Assembly (NCBI GenBank): GCA_045863855.1
Contig: BTVV01000105.1
Span: forward strand, 1 to 21,450
Length of the DNA: 21,450 bases
Direction of reading: 5' to 3'
Origin: Planctomycetota bacterium
Lineage (GTDB): Bacteria; Planctomycetota; SZUA-567; H5-PLA8
Shown: in pieces, positions 4,477-21,193 of the stretch
Position numbering within the stretch: the stretch's first letter is position 1
How the letters are laid out: each line of letters begins with the position of its first letter
Made by a program: the position numbers and the translations under genes
The notes under the pieces: generated by a model
What the model saw: only the letters and a program-made list of their open reading frames with translations
What the model was told of the DNA's origin: nothing
Databases searched by the model: none

Positions 4477-4527
4477 ATTGGGGGAGTGCCGCTTCCGATG
4501 ACGAGTCACTCGGTGGAGAGGTCGAAA

Positions 4528-6867
4528 ATGCTTCGTGCGACGACAATCTTGGCGTGGATGGCATGTCTGCTCTTTGCTTGCGCCCGCATGGGCGCGGAAG
4601 AACGCATTCGCGGACGCGATATCGGGTGGCCGAGGGAATTCGCCGCCGGCGATCATCGCGTGGTGATGTATCAGCCACAAATCGACGCCTGGAGCGTTGA
4701 CCGGTCCCGCATGACTTTCTTGTCGGCCGTCGAAGTTGCGCCTAAAGGCACGGGCCCATCAACGTATGGCGTCATCGAGATTGAAGCGCATTCCGAAACG
4801 AATGTCGCGGAACGGACCGTGGACCTGAGCAACCTCAAGGTCAGGGAGTTGCGGTTCCCCAATGTGCCTGCGGACCAGGTGGAGGGCCTGAGTAAACGGG
4901 TTCGCGGGGCACTTCCTTCGACTGAAGGGAAAATCATCGTCGCTTCGCTCGATCGCATCAACGCGTACCTGGACGACCCGACCGCACAGCACCGTGGCGT
5001 CAGCGTCAACATGACTCCACCGAATATACTTTACAGCGACAAGCCGGCGGTCCTGATCATTTTCATGGGCAAGCCGGAGTTCAGAAAAATCGAGGGCGCC
5101 GGCCTGCTCGCGGCAACCAACACAAATTGGGACGTGTTCCTGGACCCCACTGAATCCCGTTACTACTTGCTTAATGGAAACTACTGGCTCACCAGCAAAG
5201 ATGTTACCAAGGAAGATTGGAAGATCGCGAAAGACCTGCCTCAAGGCTTTTCCCGGCTGCCGCAGGATCCCAATTGGGAAGATGTCCGCAAGCACGTTCC
5301 GGGCGGCGCCGCCGACAAGGCACCTCGCGTTTTCGTCTCAACAGAGCCTGCCGAACTGATCGTCACCGATGGCGAGCCTAGGTTCACGCCCATTCCTGGC
5401 ACTCGACTCATGGAGGTCGCGAACTCCGAAAGCGCACTGTATTACCATGGCGCGGAGAAATTGTACTACTATCTCGTGGCTGGACGCTGGTTCCGCGCAA
5501 AAGATTTGAAAGCGTCGTGGTCGCCGGCATCGCAAGATCTTCCATCCGATTTCGCGGCCATTCCCGACGATAACGAGAACGCCTTCGTGAAGGCCAGCGT
5601 ACCCGGGACGGAGTCGGCCAAGGACGCAGTCCTGCTCGCCTCCATTCCGCAGAAGACGGCCATTCGTATCGAGGATGCGAAATGCACCGTTCAATATGAC
5701 GGCACGCCGCGGTTCGTGGCGATCAAAGGTTCGGAAGTAAAGTATGCCGTCAACTCTCCTTGCGATGTGTTTTTGGTGGCTGGTGGGTATTACTGTTGCC
5801 AGCAAGGAATGTGGTTCGCCGCGCCGAAGCCCGAAGGCCCCTGGGTTCTTTGCTCCAAGGTGCCCGAGCCGCTGTACGCGATTCCGTCCGACCATCCCAA
5901 GCATAACGTGACCTATGTGTACGTGTACGACTCCACGCCGGACACCGTCGTCGTAGGCTATACCTCGGGATACACGGGCGAGTACGTCGCCGCGACGGGT
6001 GTGGTCATGTTCGGGTTGGGCATCCTCGCGGGTATGGCCATAGCGGACGACTGGGATGACGACTGTTGGCATTGGCACTACTCGTACCACCATCACTGTC
6101 ATTTCTATTCGTACGGTTGCGGCGCGGTGTATCACCACGGCTATGGCGGGTATTACCGCGCCGCGCACTGCTACGGGCCCTATGGCGGAGCGGGCCGAGG
6201 CGCTTACTACAATCCTCACACCGGGGCATGGGCTCGCGGCGGATACGTATACGGCCCCGGCGGAGGGGCGGGTTATCGAGCCGGATACAATCCCTTTACC
6301 GATACGTACGCGGCACGCGCTGTCGTCAAGACACCGTACGGCTCCTCGGGTCGCTTTTACGCGGAGCGCGGAAACAAGGAGGTCTGGGGCGGGCATGAAT
6401 CCGGTGCTCGCGGCAGCGTGGGTTGGGTAAAGGGAGACGAAGGACAAGGTGTGGCCGGCGTTGATACGCGCCACGGCCAAGGCGTGGTCGCTAAAGATAA
6501 AGAAGGAAACGTTTACGTCGGCAAGGACGGGAACATCTACAGGAAAGAAGCCGACGGCGGATGGAGTTCTAATCAAGGTGGAGACTGGAAGTCTTCCCCG
6601 TACTCGGGCACTGGCGACAAAGGTACGGAGCGCAAGTCCTCCCGCCCCGACACGCTCGCGACCAGCGACTCGCGTCCGAACGCGCCAGCCACGGTCGAAA
6701 AGCCCAGCCGCCGGGAAAGCTTCGCCGATACGGGCGAACAGCTGAACGCGGACGCCCGTTCACGCGACCGGGGAAACCAGAACGCAAGCCGCGCCTCAAC
6801 CACATGGGGTGGTTCAAGAGCCGGAGGCCGGGCTTCCGGCTCCGGCGGTGGGGGGCGGCGCCGGTAA
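4528..6867 (+). CDS. Large exported protein with a Tyr/Gly-rich repeat region (resembles proteins often auto-annotated 'carbohydrate-binding family V/XII')
   Basis: ATG 4528 follows GGAGAGG (alternative starts 4486 and 4498). It has a signal peptide, WPR and YQPQID motifs, repeated NT/NSxxxxF...YY...GxWF units and a hydrophobic segment. These are followed by YNPxTG repeats, an NVYVGKDGNIYR motif and a Gly/Arg tail. Confidence 0.75.
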   Translation: MLRATTILAWMACLLFACARMGAEERIRGRDIGWPREFAAGDHRVVMYQPQIDAWSVDRSRMTFLSAVEVAPKGTGPSTYGVIEIEAHSETNVAERTVDLSNLKVRELRFPNVPADQVEGLSKRVRGALPSTEGKIIVASLDRINAYLDDPTAQHRGVSVNMTPPNILYSDKPAVLIIFMGKPEFRKIEGAGLLAATNTNWDVFLDPTESRYYLLNGNYWLTSKDVTKEDWKIAKDLPQGFSRLPQDPNWEDVRKHVPGGAADKAPRVFVSTEPAELIVTDGEPRFTPIPGTRLMEVANSESALYYHGAEKLYYYLVAGRWFRAKDLKASWSPASQDLPSDFAAIPDDNENAFVKASVPGTESAKDAVLLASIPQKTAIRIEDAKCTVQYDGTPRFVAIKGSEVKYAVNSPCDVFLVAGGYYCCQQGMWFAAPKPEGPWVLCSKVPEPLYAIPSDHPKHNVTYVYVYDSTPDTVVVGYTSGYTGEYVAATGVVMFGLGILAGMAIADDWDDDCWHWHYSYHHHCHFYSYGCGAVYHHGYGGYYRAAHCYGPYGGAGRGAYYNPHTGAWARGGYVYGPGGGAGYRAGYNPFTDTYAARAVVKTPYGSSGRFYAERGNKEVWGGHESGARGSVGWVKGDEGQGVAGVDTRHGQGVVAKDKEGNVYVGKDGNIYRKEADGGWSSNQGGDWKSSPYSGTGDKGTERKSSRPDTLATSDSRPNAPATVEKPSRRESFADTGEQLNADARSRDRGNQNASRASTTWGGSRAGGRASGSGGGGRRR

Positions 6868-6962
6868 CCCAACGGGCGGATGCTCTGGTGCAGCCGCCTT
6901 ACCTACTGCATGGCGCGAAGCGGTCAAACAATCGCAACGCTCAACCGATAAAGGATGCCGAC

Positions 6963-8471
6963 ATGAGGCAAGGATCTAGGGGAGTCAAGGGAATCGCTCT
7001 TGCGCTTGGCGTTTTGTGCTGCGTCATGACCTTTCCAGCCGCGGCCGAGCAAGGCGGAAAGAAGCCCAACATCATTCACATCGTCGCGGACGATCTGGGC
7101 TGGAAGGACGTGGGATTCAACGGATGCGCGGACATTAAGACCCCGAACCTTGATGCCCTGGCCTCCAGCGGCGCGAAGTTCACGCAATTCTATGTACAGC
7201 CCATGTGCACGCCTACCCGCGCCGCGCTGATGACCGGCCGCTATCCGTTTCGCTACGGGCTGCAAACCGCCGTCATCCCAGGCACCGCCGGGTATGGCCT
7301 CGACACCAGCGAGTGGCTCATGCCCCAATGCCTCAAGGAGGCCGGGTACAACACGGCGATCATCGGTAAATGGCATCTCGGCCACGCCGATTTGAAATAC
7401 TGGCCCAAGCAGCGCGGCTTTGATTACGCATACGGCGCGACGATTGGGGAGTTGGATTACTTCACCCACGGCGACGCCGGCGTGCTTGACTGGTTCCGCG
7501 ACAACAAGCCCGTCCACGAAGAAGGCTACACCACCCATCTCCTCGGCGACGATGCGGTCAAATACATCAATGGGCAGAACGCGGACAAACCGTTTTACCT
7601 CTACCTCACCTTCAACGCCCCGCACACGCCGTACCTCGCGCCGAAAGAAGCCATCGCCAAGTACGCGCATGTCGCCGATCCAACCCGGCGGACGTACTGC
7701 GCCATGGTGGACAGCCTCGACGAGAACATCGGCAAGGTGGTGGCCGCGCTTGACAAGAAGGGTCTGCGAGAAAACACCCTTATCATCTTCCACAGCGACA
7801 ACGGTGGAACGCGTGATGCCATGTTCGCCGGCCAAATGGCCGACGTTTCCAAGATCAAGATTCCGTGCGACAATGGCCCCTACCGCGGCGGAAAAGGGCA
7901 GCTCTTCGAAGGCGGATGCCGCGTGGCCGCTTTCGCCAACTGGCCGGGCCGCATCAAGGCTCAGACGGTGGATGGCATCATCCACGCCGTGGACATCTAT
8001 CCCACGTTTGCTGCACTGGCGGGAGCGTCCACCGCCAAGTGCAAAACGCTCGACGGCATCAACGTCTGGGACTCCATCGCCGAAAACAAGCCTTCGCCGC
8101 GCACCGAGGTTATCTACAACATTGAGCCTTTCCGCGGCGCCATTCGCCAAGGGGACTGGAAATTCATCTGGCGCACGCTGGTTCCCGCCAGCTTCGACCT
8201 CTACAACCTCAGCGAAGATCCCTATGAGGCCAAAAACGTCGCCGCCGCCCATCCCGACAAAGTCGCCGCGATGCAGGAAAGAATCAACGCGCTGGGCAAG
8301 GAATGCGCAAAGCCGCTCTTCCTCCAATACATCGCGAGCGTAGGCATGAAACACGGCAAGCCCATCATCGCCGCCGAAGACGGCCAACCGCAAGCACTCA
8401 TCGGCGGCAGCGAGCACTCGATCACCGATGAGGGGTTCGGCAATACCGAAGCCGAGGCCGAACACCGCTGA
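6963..8471 (+). CDS. Cys-type (formylglycine-dependent) arylsulfatase, exported
   Basis: Motifs PNIIHIVADDLG, CTPTRAALMTGR (Cys codon 7206-7208), GKWHLG, APHTP, HSDNG and GGKGQLFEGG. A Sec-type signal peptide follows ATG 6963; the track start at 6804 overlaps the upstream gene. Confidence 0.95.
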   Translation: MRQGSRGVKGIALALGVLCCVMTFPAAAEQGGKKPNIIHIVADDLGWKDVGFNGCADIKTPNLDALASSGAKFTQFYVQPMCTPTRAALMTGRYPFRYGLQTAVIPGTAGYGLDTSEWLMPQCLKEAGYNTAIIGKWHLGHADLKYWPKQRGFDYAYGATIGELDYFTHGDAGVLDWFRDNKPVHEEGYTTHLLGDDAVKYINGQNADKPFYLYLTFNAPHTPYLAPKEAIAKYAHVADPTRRTYCAMVDSLDENIGKVVAALDKKGLRENTLIIFHSDNGGTRDAMFAGQMADVSKIKIPCDNGPYRGGKGQLFEGGCRVAAFANWPGRIKAQTVDGIIHAVDIYPTFAALAGASTAKCKTLDGINVWDSIAENKPSPRTEVIYNIEPFRGAIRQGDWKFIWRTLVPASFDLYNLSEDPYEAKNVAAAHPDKVAAMQERINALGKECAKPLFLQYIASVGMKHGKPIIAAEDGQPQALIGGSEHSITDEGFGNTEAEAEHR

Positions 8472-8601
8472 TAGCTTGCGGCCCAAGGCCTCCCCAAGCC
8501 GCGAGGGCCTGGGTGTTAAGCGAGCATTCGGTTCGCCGCGTTTTCGGATGGAAAGGCAGTCGGTCTCAAGATCCATTTCAAGGGTATTCGCAGGCGGCGC
8601 C

Positions 8602-9822
8602 ATGGAACGCTTCATCAGAAACGCAATCCCAAGCCATGCGCCAGCGCCGGAGTCGCGGTGGCGGCTGGCGGCGAGCGTCTCCTGCGGCGTATTGCTCCTG
8701 CTGACGGTCTACTCGGCGCGTCGTTTCCAAAGCACCGTCTCGCCGGTGCGTTCCGCCGATAATCAAGAAGCTCCCGCGCATCCAATCGCATCCGCGACAC
8801 TCGTGAAGCCCGCGCCGACTTCGTCTTACGAAGCCACGCGCGCCAACGCATTCAAGCCGATGAATCCGGGGCCGGACGGCATGGTCTGGATTCCCGGCGG
8901 CGAATTCTCCATGGGTTGCGACGATCCTCGAGAATGCCCATGCGGCGGACCGGATGCCATGTCAGACGCCAGGCCCATTCATCGCGTCTATGTGGACGGC
9001 TTCTGGATGGACAAGACAGAGGTCACCAACGCGCAATTCGCGAGGTTCGTTCAGGCCACCGGATACGTCACCGTGGCCGAACGCGTGCCGACGAAAGAAG
9101 AATTTCCCACCGCAATTCCTGAGAACCTAGTTGCCGGCTCTGCTGTCTTTACTCCAACTACCACGCAGGTTCCGCTAGAGGATCACAGCCGCTGGTGGCA
9201 ATACCAGCCAGGGGCCAACTGGCGTCATCCGGAAGGACCCCATTCCAATTGGGAGGGCCGAGAGCACTACCCGGTGGTGCACATCGCCTTTGAAGACGCG
9301 GCGGCCTACTGTAATTGGGCGGGTAAACGACTACCGACCGAAGCGGAATGGGAGTTTGCCGCGCGCGGCGGTATGCAAGGAAAGCGCTATCCTTGGGGCG
9401 ATGAGTTCAGGCCCAATGGCTCTTGGCGCGCGAATACCTACCAAGGCGAGTTTCCAGTTCGGGATTTCGGTGAAGATGGATTTGTCGGGCTTGCGCCTGT
9501 TGCCCAATTCCAGCCTAATGCTTACGGATTGAACGACATGGCTGGCAATGCCTGGGAATGGTGCAGTGATTGGTATCGCAGCGACTATTATAGCCGGCTG
9601 TCATTGGAAGGCGGTCTGACTCTAAATCCCCAAGGTCCCGATGTGCCCTTCGACCCCGTAGAGCCCGGTGTACGCAAGCGAGTTCAACGAGGTGGTTCAT
9701 TTCTTTGTACGGACCAGTATTGCACCCGCTACTGGGTGGGCGCGAGAGGCAAGGGCGAGGTATCGACTAGCACCAATCATGTTGGATTTCGATGCGCCAA
9801 GAGTCCTTCGAGCTTGAAGTGA
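8602..9822 (+). CDS. Formylglycine-generating enzyme (FGE/SUMF1 family, sulfatase maturase)
   Basis: Motifs MVWIPGGEFSMG, EVTNAQF, RLPTEAEWEFAARGG, DMAGNAWEW, the catalytic RGGSFLCxxxxCxRY and HVGFRC. The start is uncertain (8548 or 8602). Confidence 0.92.
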   Translation: MERFIRNAIPSHAPAPESRWRLAASVSCGVLLLLTVYSARRFQSTVSPVRSADNQEAPAHPIASATLVKPAPTSSYEATRANAFKPMNPGPDGMVWIPGGEFSMGCDDPRECPCGGPDAMSDARPIHRVYVDGFWMDKTEVTNAQFARFVQATGYVTVAERVPTKEEFPTAIPENLVAGSAVFTPTTTQVPLEDHSRWWQYQPGANWRHPEGPHSNWEGREHYPVVHIAFEDAAAYCNWAGKRLPTEAEWEFAARGGMQGKRYPWGDEFRPNGSWRANTYQGEFPVRDFGEDGFVGLAPVAQFQPNAYGLNDMAGNAWEWCSDWYRSDYYSRLSLEGGLTLNPQGPDVPFDPVEPGVRKRVQRGGSFLCTDQYCTRYWVGARGKGEVSTSTNHVGFRCAKSPSSLK

Positions 9823-9838
9823 GTGCTCTATCGCGATT

Positions 9839-11569
9839 TTGGGATGTGCCCGATGGGGACACGCAGGGCCTCTCCGGACGGGCAATCCGCTAGACGGAGT
9901 AACAGGAGCATTATCCGTGCCTGGGAGATTTCCTGCGCTGCGAGCCGACATAGTCTCCGGCCTGACGGTCTTTACTGTGCTGGTTCCCTCCGCCATGGCT
10001 TATGGCGAACTGGCCGGCGTGACACCGCAGGCGGGTCTGTGCGCGGGTCTGGTCGCGATGCTGGTCTACGCGGCCCTGGGCAGCTCCCGGCACCTAATTG
10101 TCGGACCGGAAGCCACCTCGGCGCTTCTCGCCGCGGTGATTATCGCTCCCGTGGCGGGCACCGGCGCCGACGCCGGTCGCATGGCGGCGCTGGCTGGCAT
10201 CCTGGCGGCACAGGTGGGTGCAATGCTGATGCTTGGATGCCTGCTGCGCGTCGGCTTCCTGGCAGACTTTCTTGCCCGTGCTGTGCTGACGGGTTACATC
10301 ACCGGCGCCGCGCTCCTGGTCATCCACAGCCAGTTAGGCAAGCTCTTTCGCATTAAGCTTGAGTCGGATGGCTTCTTCCGCTCCCTCCATGAATTGGCCT
10401 TCCGATTGGGGGATGCGCATGGGCCGACCGTACAGGTCGGTGCCGGAACCATTCTGGCATTGCTTGCCATCCGAAGATTTCTTCCGCGAGTTCCCTCCTC
10501 CCTGGTGGCCGTCACCTTAGGCATTTTGCTTTGTAGTTGGTTTGACTGGAAGAACTTGGGAGTCAGGGTGGTGGGCGAGGTGCCTGCCGGATTGCCCACC
10601 GTTGGCGTGCCTCAGGTATCATGGGCGGATGTGCAGGCGTTGTTGCCCGGTGCGGCGTCCATGGCGCTGCTGGCCTTTTCCGATGCTGTCCTGACCGGGC
10701 GTTCGTTCGCGGCGCGGCACGGCTACGCGGTGGACGCCAACCGGGAATTGTTCGCATTGGGCGCCGCAAACCTGGGCACGGCGCTTTTCGGAGGATTCCC
10801 GGTAGCCGCGAGCGGTTCGCGTACGGCCGTCAACGAAGGGACCGGCGCTCAGTCCAAAGCCTCCGGGGCTCTGGCCGCTGGCGCCCTAGCCGTCTTTCTT
10901 CTCTTTTTCACCTCCGTCCTGGCTAACCTTCCGGTCGCCATCTTAGGTGCCATTATTATTGTTTCATCACTGGGCATGATCGAGTTCGGCGAGCTGGCGC
11001 GCATGTACCGATTCCGCTGGCAGACCTTTCTCGGCGCTATGGTTACCCTGCTTGGGGTGCTGGTATTAGGGGTCGTGCCGGCCATTCTGGTGGCAGTGAC
11101 GCTCTCGCTGTTCCTGGTGATCGCGGTGATTTCTCGGCCATTGGATCATCATCTTGTCAGGGCGGGTGGCGCGACGGCCTTTCGTCCCATCGGAGAGGGT
11201 CCCGTTTACCAGATAGAACCCGGGCTGGCCGTTTACCGGATGGACGGACTGATGATGTTTGCCAATTGCGGCAGAATGAAATCCCGCGTACTCGAACTGG
11301 CCCAAAACGCGCAACCCGCACTGCATGCCGTGGTCCTGGATCTGAGCATGAGTCCCGATACCGACTTGACCTCGCTGACGGCTATCGAGGAATTGCACTC
11401 GGAACTTAAGCTGTGCGATGTGCGCCTGCTGATTGCGGAGGTGAATCCCTGGATCCTCCAGCTCCTCCAGCGATCCGGGACGGACCGCGTGCTGGGAACC
11501 GAGAACATTCACCCTAACCTAGCCTCCGCCATAGAAGCTTTTCAAAGAGCGCGGTCCGCCCAGACATGA
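9839..11569 (+). CDS. sulP: SulP/SLC26 family anion permease with C-terminal STAS domain
   Basis: Motifs DIVSGLTV..VPSAMAYGELAG, GSSRHLIVGP, DANRELFALGAAN and SRTAVN. The STAS domain shows YRMDGLMMFAN and VVLDLS..DLT. The TTG start is uncertain. Confidence 0.92.
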   Translation: MGCARWGHAGPLRTGNPLDGVTGALSVPGRFPALRADIVSGLTVFTVLVPSAMAYGELAGVTPQAGLCAGLVAMLVYAALGSSRHLIVGPEATSALLAAVIIAPVAGTGADAGRMAALAGILAAQVGAMLMLGCLLRVGFLADFLARAVLTGYITGAALLVIHSQLGKLFRIKLESDGFFRSLHELAFRLGDAHGPTVQVGAGTILALLAIRRFLPRVPSSLVAVTLGILLCSWFDWKNLGVRVVGEVPAGLPTVGVPQVSWADVQALLPGAASMALLAFSDAVLTGRSFAARHGYAVDANRELFALGAANLGTALFGGFPVAASGSRTAVNEGTGAQSKASGALAAGALAVFLLFFTSVLANLPVAILGAIIIVSSLGMIEFGELARMYRFRWQTFLGAMVTLLGVLVLGVVPAILVAVTLSLFLVIAVISRPLDHHLVRAGGATAFRPIGEGPVYQIEPGLAVYRMDGLMMFANCGRMKSRVLELAQNAQPALHAVVLDLSMSPDTDLTSLTAIEELHSELKLCDVRLLIAEVNPWILQLLQRSGTDRVLGTENIHPNLASAIEAFQRARSAQT

Positions 11570-11717
11570 GCAAGTTTCCATTACACCTGGGGCTGCACCC
11601 CAAAAAATCGAATGGGTACAGGGTGCATTACCGGGCGCAGTTTGACTTGGCTTTGCAGCCAGAAATAGAAAGCCGACAGGAATGGAGATCCCACATGGTG
11701 TAGCGGCCCAGGAGCCT

Positions 11718-11961
11718 GTGTAGCGGCCAAGGCGATTGTGAAGTCCGTAAATGATCCGGAGGCGCGCGAAAAAGTGAAATTTCCGCAACAGCCTCGCGCG
11801 TGCTTCTCGCCGACGGATTCAGGAAAGCCTTTGAATTTCAAAGACCGGTAGTCGATTCGCGCGCTACGCGATCAGCCGTACGGTCCGCATGGCGCGAATG
11901 TCGAGCTTGATCAAGTTGGGATCGCCGCCGTAATGGGTGCGATGCAGGGAGAGCGGGGGAC
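11718..11961. repeat. Diverged tandem unit, copy A (~244 bp)
   Basis: Begins with GTGTAGCGGCC, with an extra copy at 11698. The 81-nt block 11858-11938 matches 12101-12181 at 74/81 positions, and its last 46 nt are identical. Confidence 0.85.
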
Positions 11962-12205
11962 GTGTAGCGGCCCAGGAGCCTGTTAAGCCTCCCGATGAAT
12001 CCCGCGAACCGAAGAAATGAAACGGGCGAAACAAGCTCGGCTGCATTTCTACCGCGCAGGTCCAGCGGATGTTTTGATTTCCAAAGAACTATGTCTGTTC
12101 CGCGCGCTACGCGATCAACCGTACCGTTCGGTGGACGCGAATGTCGAGCTTGATCAAGTTGGGATCGCCGCCGTAATGGGTTCGAATCACCCAGACCGGC
12201 GGCAG
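11962..12205. repeat. Diverged tandem unit, copy B (~244 bp)
   Basis: GTGTAGCGGCCCAGGAGCCTGT at 11962-11983 is identical to 11698-11719. Patches are colinear with copy A (GAAGAAATGAAA vs GAAAAAGTGAAA; TTTGATTTCCAAAGA vs TTTGAATTTCAAAGA), and the 81-nt block is shared. Confidence 0.85.
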
Positions 12206-12284
12206 GACTCCATGCGCCAGGATCGACCGTCCTTGGGGCGACTTCGCACCTGCCTCCCTTTCGGCCGGACGATCGCCCCTACCG

Positions 12285-12407
12285 CTACAACCCCCTCACC
12301 ACACGCTTCAACTGCGCCTTCAGCGCTGCCTTTATCAACCGCTCCAGAATGCGCTTCTGTTCGTCGGTGAAGATCGCCTTACGGCCGCGCTTGCCCTTCT
12401 TGGCCAT
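12285..12407 (-). CDS. Small basic protein, 40 aa (MAKKGKRGRKAIFTDEQKRILERLIKAALKAQLKRVVRGL)
   Basis: It is below the ORF-track cutoff. The ATG follows GGGAGGGG and sits 1 nt after the stop of the upstream HTH remnant. Codons mostly end in G or C. Confidence 0.6.
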   Translation of the reverse strand: MAKKGKRGRKAIFTDEQKRILERLIKAALKAQLKRVVRGL

Positions 12408-12408
12408 C

Positions 12409-12507
12409 TCAAGCCCCTCCCAGCACGCGTAAGCGCTCCAACGCCTCGCGCTTGCCCAGTCCCCTCAAGGCCGCCAGCGCCGCCACTTGCGATGCCCTGG
12501 GCAATGC
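12409..12507 (-). pseudogene. 3' remnant of an XRE-like helix-turn-helix protein gene
   Basis: Translates ALPRASQVAALAALRGLGKREALERLRVLGGA*. This resembles the PRxxQ...LRGxGKREA C-terminus of a common HTH family. An in-frame stop lies a few codons upstream and there is no ATG. Confidence 0.6.
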
Positions 12508-12613: not shown

Positions 12614-13531
12614 ATGGCCCAACCAACCGTCCTGCCCTCCGAGGAACATCGCACCACGGCCATTTCGCAATCCTTGCGCGTGATCGCGGACGTTGATGGA
12701 CCGAACGCCCCCAAAACGCATGATTTCACGAGGGATGAGTGGGCTTTCTGTGACGATCCCCGGTATCGCCTTCGAGTAGCTGGTAATCTATTGGAACGCA
12801 AGCGCGCGTGGGGGCTAGCTTACCGCGTGTACCGGAGCAAGGGGTATGCGCGCGAATCGGAACTTGGCTTATGGTACGGCATTCATGATGCATTGGCCGA
12901 CACGATTACATTCATAGCCGAACGCCAAGGCGATCCAGTTGCAGCCCTGACGGTAGTATTCGACTCCCTATTGGGGCTTCCCGCCGACCACCTGTTCGCA
13001 GACGAGATCGCCCAACTGCGGAGAACCGGGCGCCGGCCCTGCGAACTGGTCAGTCTAGTTTCCGTGGAGACGAATGCCGCCCGCGGCGCAGAGCTGGTTC
13101 GCCAACTTTTCCGTCTCGCGCACCGGGCTGCGGAAGGCCGGTCCGACGATCTTCTCATCACGGTCAATCCCCGCCATACGCCCTTTTACATACGCAAGCT
13201 CCTCTTCGAGCGCTTCGGCCCCGACCGGACTTACGAGAAGGTCAATGGGGCGCTGGCGACGCCCTTGCGTCTCGACCTGCACACGGCCAGGGAGCGGTAT
13301 CGCCAAGCCTATGCCCAGCGCGAGGGTGGCGAGAACCTGTACGCTTTCTTCTGTGGGGCTCACGAACGTCCCATGGCCGCATGGATCGAATCTGGCAAAC
13401 GCCAGCTCGATGCCGACGCGCTCCGGCGTTACTTCGTGGATCTGCGGCCGCTCCTGCCGGACGCCCCGCCGCTTCACCGCGAAGCAATCCTCGCCGGGTA
13501 TGCCTCCTCGGCGTGCGCGGTCGTCTCATGA
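12614..13531 (+). CDS. Long-chain N-acyl amino acid synthase, FeeM-like (GNAT fold)
   Basis: Motifs YRVYRSKGY, TVVFDSLLGLPAD, CELVSL (putative catalytic Glu) and DLLITVNPRHTPFY...F...G...Y..VNGA.A..LRLDL. An AGGGAG RBS precedes ATG 12614. Confidence 0.85.
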   Translation: MAQPTVLPSEEHRTTAISQSLRVIADVDGPNAPKTHDFTRDEWAFCDDPRYRLRVAGNLLERKRAWGLAYRVYRSKGYARESELGLWYGIHDALADTITFIAERQGDPVAALTVVFDSLLGLPADHLFADEIAQLRRTGRRPCELVSLVSVETNAARGAELVRQLFRLAHRAAEGRSDDLLITVNPRHTPFYIRKLLFERFGPDRTYEKVNGALATPLRLDLHTARERYRQAYAQREGGENLYAFFCGAHERPMAAWIESGKRQLDADALRRYFVDLRPLLPDAPPLHREAILAGYASSACAVVS

Positions 13532-15198
13532 TCCGGATCGCCGAGCGAAGAACCGGAGCGCTTCCCTCGGATCGGGAAGCCGTTTCCGGAGCGCGGGCCG
13601 CATGGCGCACTGCCTTGGGTCCAGAGGCCGTGCTCGACGCGGAGGCCGCCCACGCTTGCTACGCGCGAAACACGGTGGGGCTGGAGCGTTCCATTCAAGG
13701 CGCGTTGAGACCGGCCGATCAAACCCACGTACAGGCGTTGGTGCGTATAGCCGCAGAATTCGGCGTTCCGCTCTTTCCGATTGGCGCGGGCCGAAACTGG
13801 GGATACGGCTGCGCTTCGCCCAGCGCGAACGGGTGCGTGATCGTGGACTGTTCCCGGATGCGCCGTATCTCGATGGATCCCGAATTGGGCCTGGTTACCG
13901 TGGAGCCCGGCGTCACTCAAGGGCAACTGGCCGAATACCTGGATGCGCGAAACTTGCCGTACTTGGTCCCCGTTACCGGTGCGGGGCCCGATGCCAGCCT
14001 GCTCGGAAATGTGCTGGAGCGCGGGTACGGCATCACGCCGTACCCCGACCACTTCGCTGCCGTGACCTCGTTGGAAGCGGTTTTGCCCGACGGCAGCCTC
14101 TATACCCCGACGCTTGCAGCCGCCGGCTGCGAACGCGCGGACCGCGCCTACCGTTGGGGATTGGGACCTTACCTGAACGGGTTGTTCACGCAGTTTGGAC
14201 TGGGCATCGTAACGCAAGTGACATTGGCATTGGCGCCCCGTCCCGAGCGCGTAGAAGCTTTCTTCTTCAGCTTGCCTCGCGGCGCCGATCTGGGTTCGGC
14301 CGCGGCGCGTCTTCGCGATCTCCTGCGCCGCTGTGGAAGTACGGTTTCGGCGCTCAATCTGATGAACGCGCGGCGCATACTGTCCATGTTCGAACCCTAC
14401 CCCACGGCGCGGGTGCCGGATGGCGGGACGATGCCGCAAGCCCTGGTGGACGAACTGATGAGTCCCTACGGCAAGGCGTCCTGGTTGGGCGTGGGATGTC
14501 TATACGGTACTCACAGGACCGTACGCGCGGCCAAGGCGGAAATCAGGCGCTTGTTGCATGGGTGGAGCAGCAGGCCTTGGTTCGTGACACCCGCACAGGC
14601 TTGCACGGCCAGGAAGTGGGCGGAGCGCTTGCCGCTGTTGAAAAACTCCGGGTTCGCCCGCCGTCTCCAAAGGCTCGACGAAACGCTTCGGATCATGAAT
14701 GGCCGGCCCAGTTCCGTCGCGCTTCGCTTGGCATACTGGCGCAGTAGGCATGCGCCGGATGCCCATGTGCACATGAACCCCAGCCGGGACGGCAGCGGAT
14801 TGCTCTGGTACTCGCCCTTGGTCCCGTTAGGCGCAGCGGACCTTGATAGTTTCGCGGCCTTCGTTGAACGAACCTGCTTGGCGCACGGCATAGAACCGCT
14901 GATTACGCTTACCACCCTATCGGACCGCTGCTGCGACAGCACGATTCCCCTACTTTTTCGAAGGGACGATCCCGCCGAAGCCGAACGCGCACACGCTTGT
15001 TACGAAGCGCTCTTGAAACAAGGGTTGGTATTGGGCTTTCCTCCTTATCGGCTGCCGGTGCATGCTATGCCCCTGATGGTGAAGAGTGCGCAGACTTGCT
15101 GGCGCATGAGCCGAAGCATCAAGCAGGCATTGGATCCTCAAAACATCATGGCACCAGGCCGTTACGACTCCGAGCTTTTTCCCCAAGGCGAAGCATGA
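13528..15198 (+). CDS. FAD-binding oxidoreductase, VAO/p-cresol methylhydroxylase family (FeeG/CndG-like candidate)
   Basis: Motifs PIGAGRNWGYG, VTVEPGVTQGQL, GNVLERGYGITPY, LEAVLPDG, GLGIVT, GLLWYSP, PPYR and ALDPQNIMAPGRY. ATG 13528 overlaps the synthase stop (ATGA). Confidence 0.88.
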   Translation: MIRIAERRTGALPSDREAVSGARAAWRTALGPEAVLDAEAAHACYARNTVGLERSIQGALRPADQTHVQALVRIAAEFGVPLFPIGAGRNWGYGCASPSANGCVIVDCSRMRRISMDPELGLVTVEPGVTQGQLAEYLDARNLPYLVPVTGAGPDASLLGNVLERGYGITPYPDHFAAVTSLEAVLPDGSLYTPTLAAAGCERADRAYRWGLGPYLNGLFTQFGLGIVTQVTLALAPRPERVEAFFFSLPRGADLGSAAARLRDLLRRCGSTVSALNLMNARRILSMFEPYPTARVPDGGTMPQALVDELMSPYGKASWLGVGCLYGTHRTVRAAKAEIRRLLHGWSSRPWFVTPAQACTARKWAERLPLLKNSGFARRLQRLDETLRIMNGRPSSVALRLAYWRSRHAPDAHVHMNPSRDGSGLLWYSPLVPLGAADLDSFAAFVERTCLAHGIEPLITLTTLSDRCCDSTIPLLFRRDDPAEAERAHACYEALLKQGLVLGFPPYRLPVHAMPLMVKSAQTCWRMSRSIKQALDPQNIMAPGRYDSELFPQGEA

Positions 15199-15258: not shown

Positions 15259-16647
15259 CTAGTAAGGCCCGGGATTATCGTATAGAAGCGGTTTGCCAGA
15301 GGGGGGATTCGCCAACTTCTCCATGCGCGCACGGAGCCGGCCGGCCTCATCCGCCTCGATTTCTTGAGCTTCCATTCGAATCACGGCGAAACCGTCCACG
15401 ATTAGGGCCAGTCTTCCGTCGCCGCGCGAGTCGAATCGCTTGAAGGAATTCGGCGCATCCTCCGATCCGATTAGCGCATCCTGGCCCACAAAAAGAATTT
15501 CATGCGTGAAAGTGGTGGATTTTTGCTTGGAGACCACCCACGTCGGCGCCGTGCTAGCCCATACCCACCCGGGTACAAAGTGATCTTCCTCCAGCCACAT
15601 GAGCGAAGCAGTGGCTCGGGCATTCATCCATTGGAACGACAACCGGACTCGAAAGGCATCGGGCCACTTGGAGACCGATGGCATCACGACCAGCATTTCG
15701 GGGTTCCCAGCCTTCATGCCAACCGTGTTGCCGGAAACAGGTTGAAAAAGAGGATGTCCGCGCAATACCTCAAAGCCCTGAGGTAACGTCTCAAAAGTCC
15801 AGATACGACGCATGGGGGTGGGCGACAACTCGGCGGTTTCTTTCCCGGGCGCGGCTCGCGGCTTCGATGTCCGGGGTGGGACGCCGGCAACCGGCATGAG
15901 ATTCCAAGCCAGTATCGCCGTTGCGGCGACCCCGGCGGCAAAGCTCAGTGCCGCCGTGCGCGAGAAACCTGGTATTCGGGACGGGGCGGGCGCCATGCGC
16001 CGCAGGAGCGCTGGCAGGCAATCGGGTGGCGCCGGACCTTCACAGCAGGCTCGCCGAAATAGGTTCGCATCCAGCGTGGCGACGGCCAAACCGGCGGCGG
16101 CCAGATGCTCCCGCAGGTCCGTCACCGCCCGCTTGAGACGGAACGAAACGGTGGTCTGGGGGACTTTGAGTTGTTGGGCGATCTCTTCCTGGGTCATATC
16201 GGCCCCGTAGTAGAAGCTCAATATTTGCCGTTCGAGATCGGGGAGTCGGTCCATCAGCGACCTGAGCGCACTGAGCACCTCGTCGCGCTCGACCGGCTGT
16301 GTCTGGGCGCCTTCATACCGTTCAGGAGGCATGGATCGAATCTTGTCCTTGAGCGCATGGACGCGGCGGCGCTTGCGCAAGGCGGCAAGGCATTCGCGCG
16401 CCACTATTTTCAGGATCCAACTTCGCACTTCGCCCGTGTCGCGCCACGTCCGCGCCGATTTCCATACCTGGAGCATGGCGTCTTGGAAAGCTTCGAGCGC
16501 CAACTCGCGGTCGCACGTGATGCGCAGGGCCAGGTTGTAAGCCTGCGTTTCGCAGCGGCGATACAATTCTGCATACGCGTCCGCGTCCTCTAGTGAGGCC
16601 ACGGCGCTCAACAAATCCTGATCGCTTCGTTGCCGTCCGCCGGCCAT
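15259..16647 (-). CDS. ECF sigma-70 factor with a transmembrane helix and C-terminal extension
   Basis: Sigma2 region (SDQDLL...AYAELYRR...EAFQDAMLQVW...RSWILKI) and sigma4 region (LPDLERQILSFYYGADMTQEEIAQQLKVPQTTVSFRLKRA). A hydrophobic segment (AALSFAAGVAATAILAW) is followed by about 210 aa of largely beta-rich sequence. Confidence 0.9.
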   Translation of the reverse strand: MAGGRQRSDQDLLSAVASLEDADAYAELYRRCETQAYNLALRITCDRELALEAFQDAMLQVWKSARTWRDTGEVRSWILKIVARECLAALRKRRRVHALKDKIRSMPPERYEGAQTQPVERDEVLSALRSLMDRLPDLERQILSFYYGADMTQEEIAQQLKVPQTTVSFRLKRAVTDLREHLAAAGLAVATLDANLFRRACCEGPAPPDCLPALLRRMAPAPSRIPGFSRTAALSFAAGVAATAILAWNLMPVAGVPPRTSKPRAAPGKETAELSPTPMRRIWTFETLPQGFEVLRGHPLFQPVSGNTVGMKAGNPEMLVVMPSVSKWPDAFRVRLSFQWMNARATASLMWLEEDHFVPGWVWASTAPTWVVSKQKSTTFTHEILFVGQDALIGSEDAPNSFKRFDSRGDGRLALIVDGFAVIRMEAQEIEADEAGRLRARMEKLANPPSGKPLLYDNPGPY

Positions 16648-17260: not shown

Positions 17261-18403
17261 ATGCTTTCCATCGGCTGGCGCAACCTGAAGCGCGACCGTA
17301 TGCGCATGCTCGTCGCCGTCCTGGGCGTGGTCTTCGCCGTGGTGCTGGTCACGGTCGAAGTCGGGATGCTGCTGGGGCTGGTGCGAAACGCGTCGCTCTT
17401 GATTGACCGTTCCGGCGCGGAAATCTGGGTCAGCACGGTGGACGTCAAGACCTTCGACTTCGCCACGCCCATGGCGCAACGCAAGAAGTACATGATCCGT
17501 TCGGTGCCCGGAGTGGAGCGCGTCGAAGAATACAACGTCTCGTACAGCGTATGGAAGCTCCCCAGCGGAGGTAACGCAAACGTGCAGGTGGTCGCCTTCG
17601 ATCCGTGGGGGGCGCTCGCCGCCCCGCTCGACCTGGTGGAAGGAAGCCTGGATGATCTGCATAACCAGGACGCGATCATTGTGGACGAAGGCGAACGGGC
17701 CAAGCTCGGCCATCCGGCGCTGGGCGATTACGTCGAGGTGATGCAGCGGAGGGCCAAGGTGGTGGGCTTCACGCGGGGTATGCGCTCATTCACCACCACG
17801 CCCTATGTTTTCACGACGCTCGGCCGCGGCGAGTTCTACGGCTGGCTCACTCGTCCATCAGGGGATGCCGCGCGCCAGTCCATTTACCTTCTCGTCAGCG
17901 TGGCACCGGGACATGACCCGGAAGCGGTGCGCCGCAAGATCGAGTCCTCGGTATCCGACGTGGAGGCGCATACGCGCGAGTCCTTCGGCCAACGTACGCG
18001 CCGGTACTGGCTGCTCGAAACCGGCGTGGGACTGGGCTTCCTTGCAGCAGCTTTCCTGGGCCTGTTGGTCGGAGGCGTAGTTGTTTCGCAGACGCTCTAC
18101 GCGATGACTTTGGAGAGGCTGCCCGAATTCGGCGTGCTCAAAGCCATGGGTGCTTCGATGCACGAGATCGCGCGTGTGGTGCTTGAGCAAGGTTTGGTCT
18201 GCGGAGTGCTGGGCTTGGCGGTGGGCCTGGCTGTCAGCGCGGGCGTGAGCGCGCTGGCGGAGTCGGCTGGAGCGGCGGTCCTGATTCCGCCGGCGCTGGT
18301 GCTGGCAGTGAGCCTGCTGACGGCTGCGCTTTGCGCGGGGGCGGCGCTGATGACCGTCGCGAGGCTGCGCAAGCTCGAACCGGCGATGGTTTTCCGAACG
18401 TGA
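17261..18403 (+). CDS. ABC exporter permease, DevC/FtsX-MacB family
   Basis: WRNL...AVLGVVFAVVLV N-terminal TM, a large periplasmic loop, EFGVLKAMGAS, three C-terminal TM segments and a LEPAMVFR end. Confidence 0.92.
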   Translation: MLSIGWRNLKRDRMRMLVAVLGVVFAVVLVTVEVGMLLGLVRNASLLIDRSGAEIWVSTVDVKTFDFATPMAQRKKYMIRSVPGVERVEEYNVSYSVWKLPSGGNANVQVVAFDPWGALAAPLDLVEGSLDDLHNQDAIIVDEGERAKLGHPALGDYVEVMQRRAKVVGFTRGMRSFTTTPYVFTTLGRGEFYGWLTRPSGDAARQSIYLLVSVAPGHDPEAVRRKIESSVSDVEAHTRESFGQRTRRYWLLETGVGLGFLAAAFLGLLVGGVVVSQTLYAMTLERLPEFGVLKAMGASMHEIARVVLEQGLVCGVLGLAVGLAVSAGVSALAESAGAAVLIPPALVLAVSLLTAALCAGAALMTVARLRKLEPAMVFRT

Positions 18404-18413
18404 GGCGCGGCAC

Positions 18414-19154
18414 ATGACGCGGGCCGTGATTGAGATGCATCGGCTGGGCAAGCGCTACGACGGCGCCGCGTGCGCCGACGACATTTGGGCGGTCCGCAAC
18501 GTCACGCTGTCCATTTTCACTGGTGACGTTACGGTGCTGATGGGGCCTTCCGGCAGCGGCAAGACGACGTTGCTGTCCATGATCGGCGGCTTGCTCGCGC
18601 CGACTACCGGCCACTTGTGCGTGTGCGGCACGATCCTGGACGAATGCGCGGAACCTGAGCGCGAGGTCTTCCGCCGGCGGAGTGTGGGCTTCATTTTTCA
18701 AAACTACAACCTGCTTCATTCCCTGACCGCGGCCGAGAACGTGGCCGTGGGCTTGTCGCTGCGCGGTGCCGATCCGGACGCCGCCGTCGGACTTCTGGAG
18801 GTCGTGGGCCTGGCGCGAAGAGCCGGGAGTTACCCCGAGGAGCTATCGGGCGGCCAGCGCCAGCGCGTGGCGATCGCGCGCGCGCTGGCGGGCGAGCCCG
18901 CGGTGCTGCTCGCCGACGAACCCACGGCAGCGCTGGATGCCGAGCAGGGCCGGCTGGTGATGGGCTTGTTGCGCAAGCGCGCCAAGGAACTCGGCATCGC
19001 CACGCTGGTGGTGACGCACGATCCGCGCGTGCGCGATTTCGCTGACCGCGTTATCGAGATGGAAGATGGCCGCTTGCACCGCGTCGTGCGTCGCGTGCGC
19101 ATTCCAAACCTAAACGGCCCCGCGAAGCGAGGAACGCCCCATGCCCGCTCCTGA
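18414..19154 (+). CDS. ABC exporter ATP-binding protein, DevA/LolD-like
   Basis: Walker A GPSGSGKT, GFIFQNYNL, signature LSGGQ, Walker B LLADEP and VTHD. Confidence 0.95.
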   Translation: MTRAVIEMHRLGKRYDGAACADDIWAVRNVTLSIFTGDVTVLMGPSGSGKTTLLSMIGGLLAPTTGHLCVCGTILDECAEPEREVFRRRSVGFIFQNYNLLHSLTAAENVAVGLSLRGADPDAAVGLLEVVGLARRAGSYPEELSGGQRQRVAIARALAGEPAVLLADEPTAALDAEQGRLVMGLLRKRAKELGIATLVVTHDPRVRDFADRVIEMEDGRLHRVVRRVRIPNLNGPAKRGTPHARS

Positions 19155-20418
19155 TTCCGTAATGTCCGCCGCCAAACGCGCGCCGAAATCCGTACCCAAG
19201 GTGCCTGCGCATGGCCGTGCTCCGGAAGCGGCGCCGGTTGGGCGCAACCGCGCTGCATATGCAGTGGGCGTGCTGGTTTTCGCTACCACTCTCGCGCTCG
19301 TGGCGAGCCTGTTCGTGGCGGCGGATCGGGAACGGCCGGTTCCGGAAAAGCGGAGGGGACCGGGGATTGTCGCCGCGCCGGGGTTGGTGGAATCGATATC
19401 GGGCCTGTTGTCCCTGGCGTTCGAGATTCCCGGCAAGTTGAAAACGGTTCGCGTCGAGGAAGGCCAGCGCGTGAAAGCCGGGGAAGTGCTCGCGGAACTG
19501 GCCAATGCCGCGCAAGCCGCGAACGCGGCTCTGGCGCGCGCGGACTTGAAGGTCGCGCAGGCCGAACTGTTGGCGCTGGAAGGGGATTTGACGGGCCAGG
19601 AGCGGCAGGCGGAGCGCGCCGTCGAACGTGCCGCCGCCGAGTGGGCCATGCTCAAGGCCGGGCCGCGGAGCGAGGAGTTGGAGCACGCACGCGCACTGGC
19701 GCGGGCTGCGGCAGCCGAGTGGAAGCGCAGGCTTGACGATGCCAGGCGGTACGTGGATCCCAAGATCGCTTCGGAGCAACAACGCGACCTCTCCCAAGGT
19801 GAGGCCGACGTGGCCGAAGCCCAACTTGCAGCCGCGCGCGCCAAGTTGCGCGAACTGGAAGCGGGGTTCCGGCCGCAGGAGATTGAAAAGGCTCACGCGC
19901 TGCACGAAGCTGCGAAGGCGGATCTCGAACGCCTGCGCGCCACGAGGGACCGGCGCCTAGAAGCCGCCGCCGGCCGCGTCGAGCAGGCCCGCGCGAAGTT
20001 AGCGGCGGCGGAAACGGAATTAGCCAAGACGACTCTCTCCGCCCCGCATGATGGCGTGGTGATCTGGAAGTACCGCCACGCGGGCGAGAGCGTGGGGGTG
20101 CTGCCCCCGGAACCCATCTTGGCGGTGGCCGATCCGCGGAAGGTGCGCGTGCGGGCCGATGTGGACGAAGGCGACTACGCCCGCATCCGGCCGGGCACGT
20201 CTGCGCGGGTGCGCGCGGAGGCTTTCGGCGACCGCGATTTCCTCGGGCGGGTGACTTTGGTGGGCGCCGCCGCCGGACGAAAGCGATTCAGCTCCGGCGA
20301 AGCGAAGGAACGGCAGGACGTCAAAATCGTAGAAACGCTCATCGAATTTGAGGCCCCTCCTCCGTTCAAGCTGGGATTGCGCGTCACCGTCCAATTTGAA
20401 GGCGTCACACACGAATGA
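19141..20418 (+). CDS. HlyD/DevB family membrane fusion protein
   Basis: N-terminal TM, biotinyl-like halves (VEEGQRVKAGEVLAEL and LSAPHDGVV), a long Ala/Glu/Arg coiled coil and a VRADVDE beta-barrel. Confidence 0.92.
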   Translation: MPAPDSVMSAAKRAPKSVPKVPAHGRAPEAAPVGRNRAAYAVGVLVFATTLALVASLFVAADRERPVPEKRRGPGIVAAPGLVESISGLLSLAFEIPGKLKTVRVEEGQRVKAGEVLAELANAAQAANAALARADLKVAQAELLALEGDLTGQERQAERAVERAAAEWAMLKAGPRSEELEHARALARAAAAEWKRRLDDARRYVDPKIASEQQRDLSQGEADVAEAQLAAARAKLRELEAGFRPQEIEKAHALHEAAKADLERLRATRDRRLEAAAGRVEQARAKLAAAETELAKTTLSAPHDGVVIWKYRHAGESVGVLPPEPILAVADPRKVRVRADVDEGDYARIRPGTSARVRAEAFGDRDFLGRVTLVGAAAGRKRFSSGEAKERQDVKIVETLIEFEAPPPFKLGLRVTVQFEGVTHE

Positions 20419-20497
20419 AGCGTTTGTCTGGCTCGCGAACCGGCGCCAGTCGCCGAGCGCTGTACTCGAAGCCACGAGATTCAGGAGCACCGATCCC

Positions 20498-21193
20498 ATG
20501 GAATTGTGCGAAGCGCACTCCGTAGATGCGGTACATGTGCTGGACGAATTGGATTTGGCTAACCGGCGCTTCGGGATCCAACGGCGCTTTCGAGCGGCGC
20601 TCTCGCCCTGGATCGCGGCGCATGCCCGAACCCGGACGCCGCTTCGTCTTCTCGACGCGGGATGCGGCACGGGCGGTTTATTGCTAGACTTGGCGGACTT
20701 TCTGAAACGGCGCGGTGTCCCCTGCCGCCTCATGGGCATAGAGATCAATCCACACGCCGTAAGGCGAGCGCGCGAGCGCGCCGTCTTTGCTCACTTACCG
20801 GACATCGAGTTTCGCTGCGCGAAGCTTGAGACCCTGCCCGCAGGTTGCACGGACGTGGTGCTCAGCTCGTTCGTGCTTCATCACTTGAGTAAGGACGAAT
20901 TGCACCTTTGGATGAGGCAGATGCGGCGCGTGGCCACGGAGGGTGCCGTACAGGTGGACTTCCGTGCGCCGTACATCGCCCCCATGCGCTGGGTGTGGCA
21001 AGGAATGCTGGCATGCGCGGGCTTCTCCCAAGCCCTGCGCGAGGACGGCCGGACATCGCTGGTCAGGGCGTGGACGGCAGAATCCGTGCAAGAGGCCTGC
21101 CGGGCGGCTGGATGGGAGCCGGAGTCGGGAATGTTCGGCGGCCTGTGCGTTCAAGTCATGGGACGCTGGGCTCTCCCTAAGCTGGGTTCATGA
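20498..21193 (+). CDS. Class I SAM-dependent methyltransferase (type usually seen beside type III PKS genes)
   Basis: Motifs LLDAGCGTGG, GIEIN, DVVLSSFVLHHL and EDGRTSLVRAW. The first in-frame ATG is at 20498 after AGGAG; the true start may lie upstream near 20411. Confidence 0.85.
   Translation: MELCEAHSVDAVHVLDELDLANRRFGIQRRFRAALSPWIAAHARTRTPLRLLDAGCGTGGLLLDLADFLKRRGVPCRLMGIEINPHAVRRARERAVFAHLPDIEFRCAKLETLPAGCTDVVLSSFVLHHLSKDELHLWMRQMRRVATEGAVQVDFRAPYIAPMRWVWQGMLACAGFSQALREDGRTSLVRAWTAESVQEACRAAGWEPESGMFGGLCVQVMGRWALPKLGS

Follow-up and report, generated by a model that had tools for sequence, protein, structure and literature searches.

A planctomycete FeeM-family synthase coupled to a VAO/PCMH-type flavoprotein: a likely tailoring pair for N-acyl aromatic amino acids, probably associated with an ECF sigma factor and a DevBCA-like exporter

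Background

What is the role of a flavoprotein from a group widely labelled as 4-cresol dehydrogenases when its gene is joined to that of a synthase of N-acyl amino acids? The question is raised by a stretch of 21,450 nucleotides from Planctomycetota bacterium (lineage SZUA-567; H5-PLA8; assembly GCA_045863855.1, contig BTVV01000105.1, positions 1 to 21,450), which is an entire contig (C105) and is referred to hereafter as the window. It carries a gene for a synthase of the FeeM family followed by a gene for a 4-phenol-oxidising flavoprotein of the VAO/PCMH type. An initial annotation, made from the sequence alone, had described these genes as a minimal two-gene cassette in which the flavoprotein tailors the product of the synthase. 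The analysis presented here favours the tailoring role as the likely one and suggests that more than two genes probably make up the unit.

The acyl donor of FeeM is acyl-acyl carrier protein (acyl-ACP), while decanoyl-CoA was used by OxzA (bioRxiv 10.1101/2020.06.11.147165), and the flavoproteins FeeG and CndG are described as acting by decarboxylation through a quinone methide (PMC11350588, PMC8762209). According to a 2024 review, decarboxylases of the FeeG/CndG type have no crystal structure (PMC11350588), and the role of the bacterial N-acyl amino acids is still called largely unknown in PMC11959600. The pair in the window thus offers a compact test case that is expected to be easy to express, and marks a large subfamily that annotation pipelines label as 4-cresol dehydrogenase and for which a residue signature is offered below.

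Methods

Profile scans were performed on 17 open reading frames (ORFs) of the window. The alignment of the flavoprotein and its relatives (hereafter the oxidase family) and the FastTree phylogeny comprised 45 family rows and six full-length, plasmid-borne controls: five enzymes linked to a cytochrome, and one that is a near-identical copy of EUGO and shares its numbering. A quick IQ-TREE phylogeny included three cytochrome-linked rows, the control row L018 being partial in it. For counting extracytoplasmic function (ECF) sigma factor genes near FeeM genes, the scoring in each large genome was limited to 150 candidates.

Results and discussion

Phylogeny and active site residues of the flavoprotein

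The flavoprotein is likely to be a tailoring enzyme acting on an N-acyl aromatic amino acid, which is the best reading because it stands apart from PchF, keeps the phenolate pocket, has lost the residues for covalent FAD, is paired with an acyltransferase and has no cytochrome c in its company. The tailoring role proposed by the initial annotation is thereby retained as a likely one, with the separate clade, the phenolate pocket, the neighbouring acyltransferase and the cytochrome c count (0/43) in its favour.

The protein matches FAD_binding_4 in the profile scan and its best solved relatives (nsVAO, PCMH, VAD, EUGO and VAO) are all 4-phenol-oxidising enzymes, no solved structure closer than about 30% identity being found in the PDB searches. 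Its AlphaFold2 model (predicted local distance difference test score, pLDDT, 91.7) matches EUGO, PCMH, nsVAO and VAD equally well, with tied Z-scores of about 41 at 26-30% identity and root-mean-square deviations of 2.1-2.3 Å over about 500 residues. Identity to the six PCMH/EUGO-type controls is 26-32%. Whether the flavoprotein groups with PchF was part of the check set by the initial annotation, and in both trees it falls outside the PchF-like enzymes: in the quick IQ-TREE it belongs to a 26-row clade (Shimodaira-Hasegawa-like approximate likelihood ratio test, 100) apart from the 3-row cytochrome-linked clade, and the FastTree phylogeny unites the 45 family rows in a single group (0.884) that excludes the six controls.

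The phenolate pocket of VAO consists of Y108, Y503 and R504 (PMC12909556); mapped through the near-identical EUGO copy, these correspond to Tyr93, Tyr507 and Arg508 of the flavoprotein, which are kept in 42, 44 and 45 of the 45 family rows, respectively. The positions of covalent FAD attachment, H390 in EUGO and Y384 in PCMH (PMC7617285, Table 1), are both lost, with Leu425 at the former and Ala402 at the latter. No Tyr occurs in the PCMH Tyr384 column in any of the 45 family rows, and Tyr403 of the flavoprotein, one residue past Ala402, aligns with PchF Asn385. Judged from these substitutions, the FAD is likely to be bound non-covalently.

At the flavin N5 the flavoprotein has the pair Gly151-Ala152, as against Asp-Leu or Ala-Pro in its relatives; Gly151 stands at EUGO Asp151 and is kept in 44/45 family rows, and Ala152 stands at PCMH Pro155 and is kept in 43/45. 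VAD with Gly at the second of these positions shows oxidase activity, the variants tested not including Ala. In PchF two glutamates, 380 and 427 by count, have a role in water attack; the flavoprotein has Ala398 and Thr460 in their place. Arg283 is found in 44 of the 45 family rows, at a position that is aromatic in all six controls; its column is that of PchF Trp285, beside EUGO Met282. Position 283 presumably contacts the para-substituent, an assignment made by equivalence with the Leu316 cluster of VAO. This cluster is described in PMC12909556. A family-specific insertion of about 17 residues (406-422), together with Gly151-Ala152, Asn280, Arg283 and Thr460, makes up the residue signature of the family; the flavoprotein of the window has Gly86 where the family consensus has Ser. 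This active site agrees with a substrate that is a p-substituted phenol, has a side chain of anionic character and is oxidised to a quinone methide but not hydrated. In three family members (L050, L051 and L052) the phenolate-binding Tyr93 is replaced by Leu, and the replacement suggests a different substrate for them.

The FeeM-family synthase and its coupling to the flavoprotein

The product of the upstream gene is identified by profile and alignment as a FeeM-family synthase with the catalytic Glu kept. It scores 127.7 bits against the Pfam FeeM profile PF21926, for which the cut-off is 27, and matches PDB 2g0b (FeeM) with an E-value of 7e-7. Glu144 aligns with the Glu of the FeeM KLAEVV stretch (chain position 96 by count, Glu95 in the literature numbering), and the equivalent of this residue is essential in Nas354 (PMC4897644). 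Within the family the synthase falls in a distinct subclade (FastTree 0.993), the members of which have mixed gene partners. Elsewhere, two ORFs of about 500 aa (L039 3868-5388 and L085 5270-6769) carry the FeeM domain in their C-terminal half, the N-terminal half having no Pfam match.

The start codon of the flavoprotein gene overlaps the stop codon of the synthase gene in an ATGA, which suggests translational coupling. Both this junction, noticed in the initial annotation, and its remark that the window has no cytochrome c, ACP or aromatic catabolic gene are confirmed, the former by the ORF coordinates and the latter within the set of 17 ORFs of the window that were scanned. The stretch 12614-15198 has zero variant letters and zero indels in contigs of the runs X3, X4 and X5, from two further studies, and one X3 contig spans the ATGA junction with no differences.

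On contig C123 of the same genome (L004 13584-18245) lies a paralog of the synthase, 67% identical to it, with a frameshifted, partial N-terminal remnant of an oxidase behind it, a convergent intact oxidase paralog of a second subtype, and integrase (rve) ORFs upstream of the cassette. The remnant could be taken to mean that the cassette of the window is likewise a passenger that was acquired recently, is decaying and has no function at present; so could the lack of the oxidase in both same-genus genomes (0/2), the repeats just upstream of the synthase that are common to other contigs, and Gly86. We regard this as very improbable, as both ORFs are intact with all key residues kept, the flavoprotein model folds with the high pLDDT given above, and the sequence recurs identically in the two further studies. 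The repeats in question comprise two copies of a direct repeat of 130 nt, at 11830-11959 and at 12073-12202 and 80% identical; together with adjoining stretches (11691-12502) they have matches of 75-95% on several further contigs in the genome, in some cases near contig ends; lying directly upstream of the synthase, they look like remnants of mobile elements.

Genes neighbouring the oxidase family

A small CxxCH ORF (cytochrome c) occurs within 1.5 kb in none of 43 family loci, many of which have a flank of only 1.5 kb, as compared with five of the six controls, the sixth being the oxidase EUGO. The window conforms to this pattern, with no CxxCH ORF on the same strand within 1.5 kb of the flavoprotein gene. 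These counts bear on the view that the flavoprotein is a catabolic p-cresol or alkylphenol dehydrogenase and the neighbouring synthase incidental. JGI names many of the relatives '4-cresol dehydrogenase', as the initial annotation had expected of a pipeline (the subfamily, with more distant relatives counted in, numbers at least 1888 proteins at E <= 1e-60), and the fold match to PCMH is as good as those to EUGO and nsVAO. Against this, Ala402 and Ala152 stand at PCMH Tyr384 and Pro155, no cytochrome c accompanies the 43 loci, and the clade is separate at 26-32% identity; such a catabolic role is considered extremely improbable. Identity with p-cresol dehydrogenase (PchF) itself is ruled out by the separate clade, the lost Tyr384 and the cytochrome c count.

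The oxidase is often accompanied by a FeeM-family gene. Among 40 related genomes it was found only in G005 (five copies) and G007 (four copies); FeeM directly adjoins seven of these nine oxidases and lies 3.7 kb from an eighth. A phylum-wide search gave oxidase matches in 13 of 400 genomes, and four of the 17 new loci have FeeM within 1.5 kb, so that the pairing is frequent without being the rule. Of these four, one (L056 616-3120, minus strand) encodes an in-frame oxidase-FeeM fusion of 835 aa (P0150) in a genome that also has two split paralogs in the order oxidase, synthase; the fusion is weak support for one shared pathway. Around 11 loci from more distant genomes, of which 90 picked ORFs were scanned and which are not independent (three Methylomonas, two Nitrosospira, three alphaproteobacteria), a FeeM-family gene is near five, a GDSL acyltransferase near five, and one or the other near eight; PEP-CTERM genes are present at eight. 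Six of 45 Methylomonas genomes match the oxidase, and all six matches are family members, of two subtypes. The top-40 list for HyeB includes a Methylomonas genome, and either of the two subtypes may be the HyeB-like one.

Members of the oxidase family with no FeeM nearby (13 of the 17 phylum-wide loci within the 1.5 kb fetched, besides L015, L016 and L040) and the mixed partners of the synthase subclade would agree with some other phenolic amine or acceptor (tyramine, a tyrosine that has been modified and a tyrosine at the C-terminus of a peptide are examples), or with separate pathways of synthase and oxidase. One shared pathway is favoured by the ATGA coupling, by the fact that the two genes adjoin each other repeatedly and in several synthase clades, and by the fusion, and no small ORF ending in tyrosine was noticed in the window, where no dedicated search for one was made. 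This alternative is held to be improbable.

Sigma factor, exporter and paralogous cassettes

The description of the locus as a minimal two-gene cassette is not borne out. The window also encodes an ECF sigma factor, convergent with the synthase-oxidase pair and divergent from an exporter operon (Table 1), and in five genomes of the same family the window's ECF subfamily occurs within 2.5 kb of 34 of the 48 FeeM genes: 15/19 in G005, 15/24 in G007, 2/3 in the own genome (G000) and 1/1 each in G002 and G003. Rough chance rates per gene are 0.016 for G005, 0.064 for G007 and 0.003 for G000. The unit is probably larger than two genes because the ECF sigma factor and the DevBCA-like exporter recur beside FeeM in this lineage, and both probably belong with the synthase-oxidase pair.

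Table 1. Features of the window in and beside the synthase-oxidase pair
Feature	Position	Strand	Basis
FeeM-family N-acyl amino acid synthase, 305 aa	12614..13531	+	PF21926 profile; alignment to PDB 2g0b
ATGA start/stop overlap	13528..13531	+	ATG of second ORF and TGA of first, read from sequence
VAO/PCMH 4-phenol-oxidising flavoprotein, 556 aa, non-PCMH clade	13528..15198	+	Profile, tree, residues, model
ECF sigma factor with predicted membrane helix (~233-251) and ~210-aa C-terminal outer domain	15259..16647	-	Profile scan, helix prediction
Small ORF, 85 aa	16999..17256	+	Similar ORF before devC in FeeM-ThiF cassettes (C182, G002)
DevC-like ATP-binding cassette (ABC) exporter permease	17261..18403	+	68% nucleotide identity to copy in C182 FeeM-ThiF cassette
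DevA-like ABC exporter ATPase	18414..19154	+	Profile; 68% nucleotide identity to C182 paralog
DevB/HlyD-like periplasmic adaptor	19141..20418	+	Profile
S-adenosylmethionine (SAM)-dependent methyltransferase	20348..21193	+	Start uncertain, may be ATG 20498

The exporter connects the window with a second paralogous cassette of the genome. Contig C182 (L005 1-8537) carries, in order, ECF, FeeM, ThiF, a small ORF, DevCAB and an outer-membrane efflux protein, a layout repeated in G002 (L074), and the small ORF and the exporter of the window are paralogs of the C182 copies, the 85-aa ORF matching its cassette counterpart with a phmmer E-value of 1.5e-5 and by comparison of the translations by eye. 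No nitroreductase was found among the nine ORFs scanned on C182. The own genome has three FeeM genes, and G005 and G007 have 19 and 24 FeeM matches, respectively. FeeM has various tailoring partners (an oxidase, ThiF either alone or along with a nitroreductase, radical SAM, a methyltransferase), the oxidase and ThiF/nitroreductase being mostly alternative partners of FeeM paralogs. The methyltransferase of the window is a possible tailoring enzyme of the cassette; at L060, L071, L083 and L084, too, FeeM genes have methyltransferases, different ones, as neighbours. The upstream regions of the two paralogous synthases yielded no convincing common motif.

A partial ECF gene at the end of contig C120 and a 5'-open ORF for a membrane-plus-domain protein on C123 appear to be the two parts of a single gene divided by a gap in the assembly; they have no exact overlap and were excluded from the counts. 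Small YgaP-like membrane proteins adjoin FeeM or ECF genes in five places (L065, L066, L069 and L088).

Proposed reaction

Oxidative decarboxylation of N-acyl-tyrosine to an N-acyl 4-hydroxystyrylamide (enamide), by analogy with FeeG and CndG, is considered the probable reaction of the pair, an opinion held with some reserve. In such a scheme the synthase would join acyl-ACP or acyl-CoA from the host to L-tyrosine, with Glu144 as the base. The phenolate of the N-acyl-tyrosine would be held by Tyr93, Tyr507 and Arg508 while the benzylic hydride passes to the non-covalent FAD, leaving a p-quinone methide. Because acidic residues are absent (Gly151 for EUGO Asp151, Ala398 and Thr460 for the PchF glutamates), the quinone methide would escape hydration and lose CO2, the near-invariant Arg283 holding the carboxylate. 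Since there is no cytochrome partner, the flavin would be reoxidised by O2; a heme-copper oxidase motif on contig C73 of the same genome (a motif match only) suggests that the host meets oxygen. The gene context would add regulation by the ECF sigma factor, export by DevBCA and possibly methylation.

From the same substrate, loss of the alpha-proton of the quinone methide would instead give an N-acyl 2,3-dehydrotyrosine of the stieleriacine or thalassotalic-acid type, the flavoenzyme replacing the nitroreductase of the OxzAB/TyzABC-type pathways, possibly along with the ThiF enzyme of C182. Planctomycetes are known producers of N-acyl dehydrotyrosines, C182 combines FeeM and ThiF with no nitroreductase among its scanned ORFs, and the mostly alternative use of oxidase and ThiF/nitroreductase by FeeM paralogs would agree with such a replacement, as would a retention of the carboxylate by Arg283. 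The only characterised VAO-family enzymes that act on N-acyl-tyrosine are decarboxylating, however, and G002 has the FeeM-ThiF-exporter cassette with no oxidase match at E <= 1e-40, so that this cassette does not need the oxidase. Desaturation is viewed as rather unlikely.

Several points weigh against the enamide pathway and the unit as drawn here. The amino-acid substrate of FeeM-type enzymes is not readable from sequence, and the active-site residues considered give no means of telling decarboxylation and desaturation apart; another effect that Arg283 could have is to stabilise the carboxylate and so favour its retention. Membership of the flavoprotein in a clade with FeeG, CndG and HyeB is only indirect, the family alignment and tree having been built without them. 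Behind the synthase's closest relative in metagenomes (43% identity) come radical-SAM-like ORFs, as judged by eye, and no oxidase, and to the oxidase loci that have no FeeM must be added that the fusion is a single record, which among 1479 candidates matched only itself. The ECF gene of the window is convergent with the pair, whereas in 26 of the 48 FeeM cases an ECF gene lies directly upstream on the same strand. Finally, nasY of Stieleria neptunia, although inside a predicted cluster, is dispensable and not the main producer (PMC12479983), which calls for caution in trusting co-location.

Relationship to characterised pathways

The window resembles the fee cluster, which comes from soil environmental DNA, in its FeeM-family synthase with a catalytic glutamate, and both fee and CndG, of chondrochloren biosynthesis, in its 4-phenol-oxidising VAO/PCMH flavoprotein with a proposed quinone-methide decarboxylation, a likeness known by description and not by sequence. 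Unlike these systems, the pair has the genes of an ECF sigma factor and of a DevBCA-like exporter linked to it, and the ORFs scanned include neither a dedicated ACP, which the fee cluster has, nor an enol-ester-forming enzyme, such as the FeeH that is reportedly part of that cluster. N-acyl amino acid synthase genes are said to have been linked to PEP-CTERM/exosortase loci by Craig, Cherry and Brady in 2011. The PEP-CTERM genes at eight of the 11 distant oxidase loci recall that association; the window itself has no PEP-CTERM match among the ORFs scanned, and the recurring regulator in this lineage is, by contrast, a predicted membrane-anchored ECF sigma factor.

In the hye (hyellamide) cluster, the GDSL protein HyeC is the proposed acyltransferase, assigned from gene content, beside the FeeG-like oxidase HyeB (PMC11959600). 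The window shares with hye the lack of a dedicated ACP and the adjacency of a FeeG-like oxidase to an acyltransferase, and GDSL genes lie beside its distant oxidase relatives at five of the 11 loci; it differs in having an acyltransferase of the FeeM type and no glycosyltransferase. With OxzAB, TyzABC and the NasY/ThiF/nitroreductase system of Stieleria (stieleriacines) it has in common the N-acyl-tyrosine entry step, with ThiF occurring in paralogous cassettes of the own genome and of the family and nitroreductase in some of the family, but the flavoprotein of the window cassette itself is of the VAO type, and the scanned ORFs include no ThiF and no nitroreductase. The flavoprotein shares the fold and the phenolate pocket with PchF/PchC, EUGO, VAO and nsVAO. 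It departs from this group in having no covalent-FAD His or Tyr, no Asp151/170 and no cytochrome partner, and in its Arg at the para-substituent position and the insertion at 406-422.

Possible signalling role

The core chemistry is known, and it is the regulatory setting of ECF sigma factor and exporter that was not found in print. No description of ECF-FeeM wiring was found in the literature, searched for the ECF link and for enamide pathways and covering few subscription papers; one paper among the matches touches on sigma factors only briefly, and PMC7826278 discusses ECF sigma factor extensions in general terms. The ECF link suggests how such lipids may be switched on. A more speculative scheme, which we consider improbable, is autoinduction free of LuxR, in which each synthase with its tailoring enzyme would make its own acyl-amino-acid signal, DevBCA would export it and the outer domain of the membrane-tethered ECF sigma factor would read it. 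Were it true, some planctomycetes would have about 20 private chemical channels, and bacterial N-acyl-tyrosine enamides would acquire a first biological role. Mantel tests of synthase against ECF distances, using either the sigma part or the C-terminal part (11 pairs in each of two genomes, a small sample with very divergent sensor domains), gave rho of -0.04 to 0.14 and p of 0.25-0.58, and thus lend no support to cognate signal-sensor pairs. In the ESM Atlas the C-terminal part of the ECF protein gave top scores of 0.83-0.90, a low level of recognition, with several glycan-binding clusters among the matches, which serves as a lead only.

Other observations

The upstream part of the window (2989-11569) is an unrelated block encoding an OprB-family porin, a 793-aa protein with no Pfam match, a sulfatase, a protein with an FGE-sulfatase domain and a SulP transporter. 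A Methylorubrum plasmid (L017 6044-13310) carries a cluster with a FeeM-family GNAT, a methyltransferase, an oxidase of the same clade, a halogenase-like protein and an amidase, and might represent a variant with halogenation or methylation.

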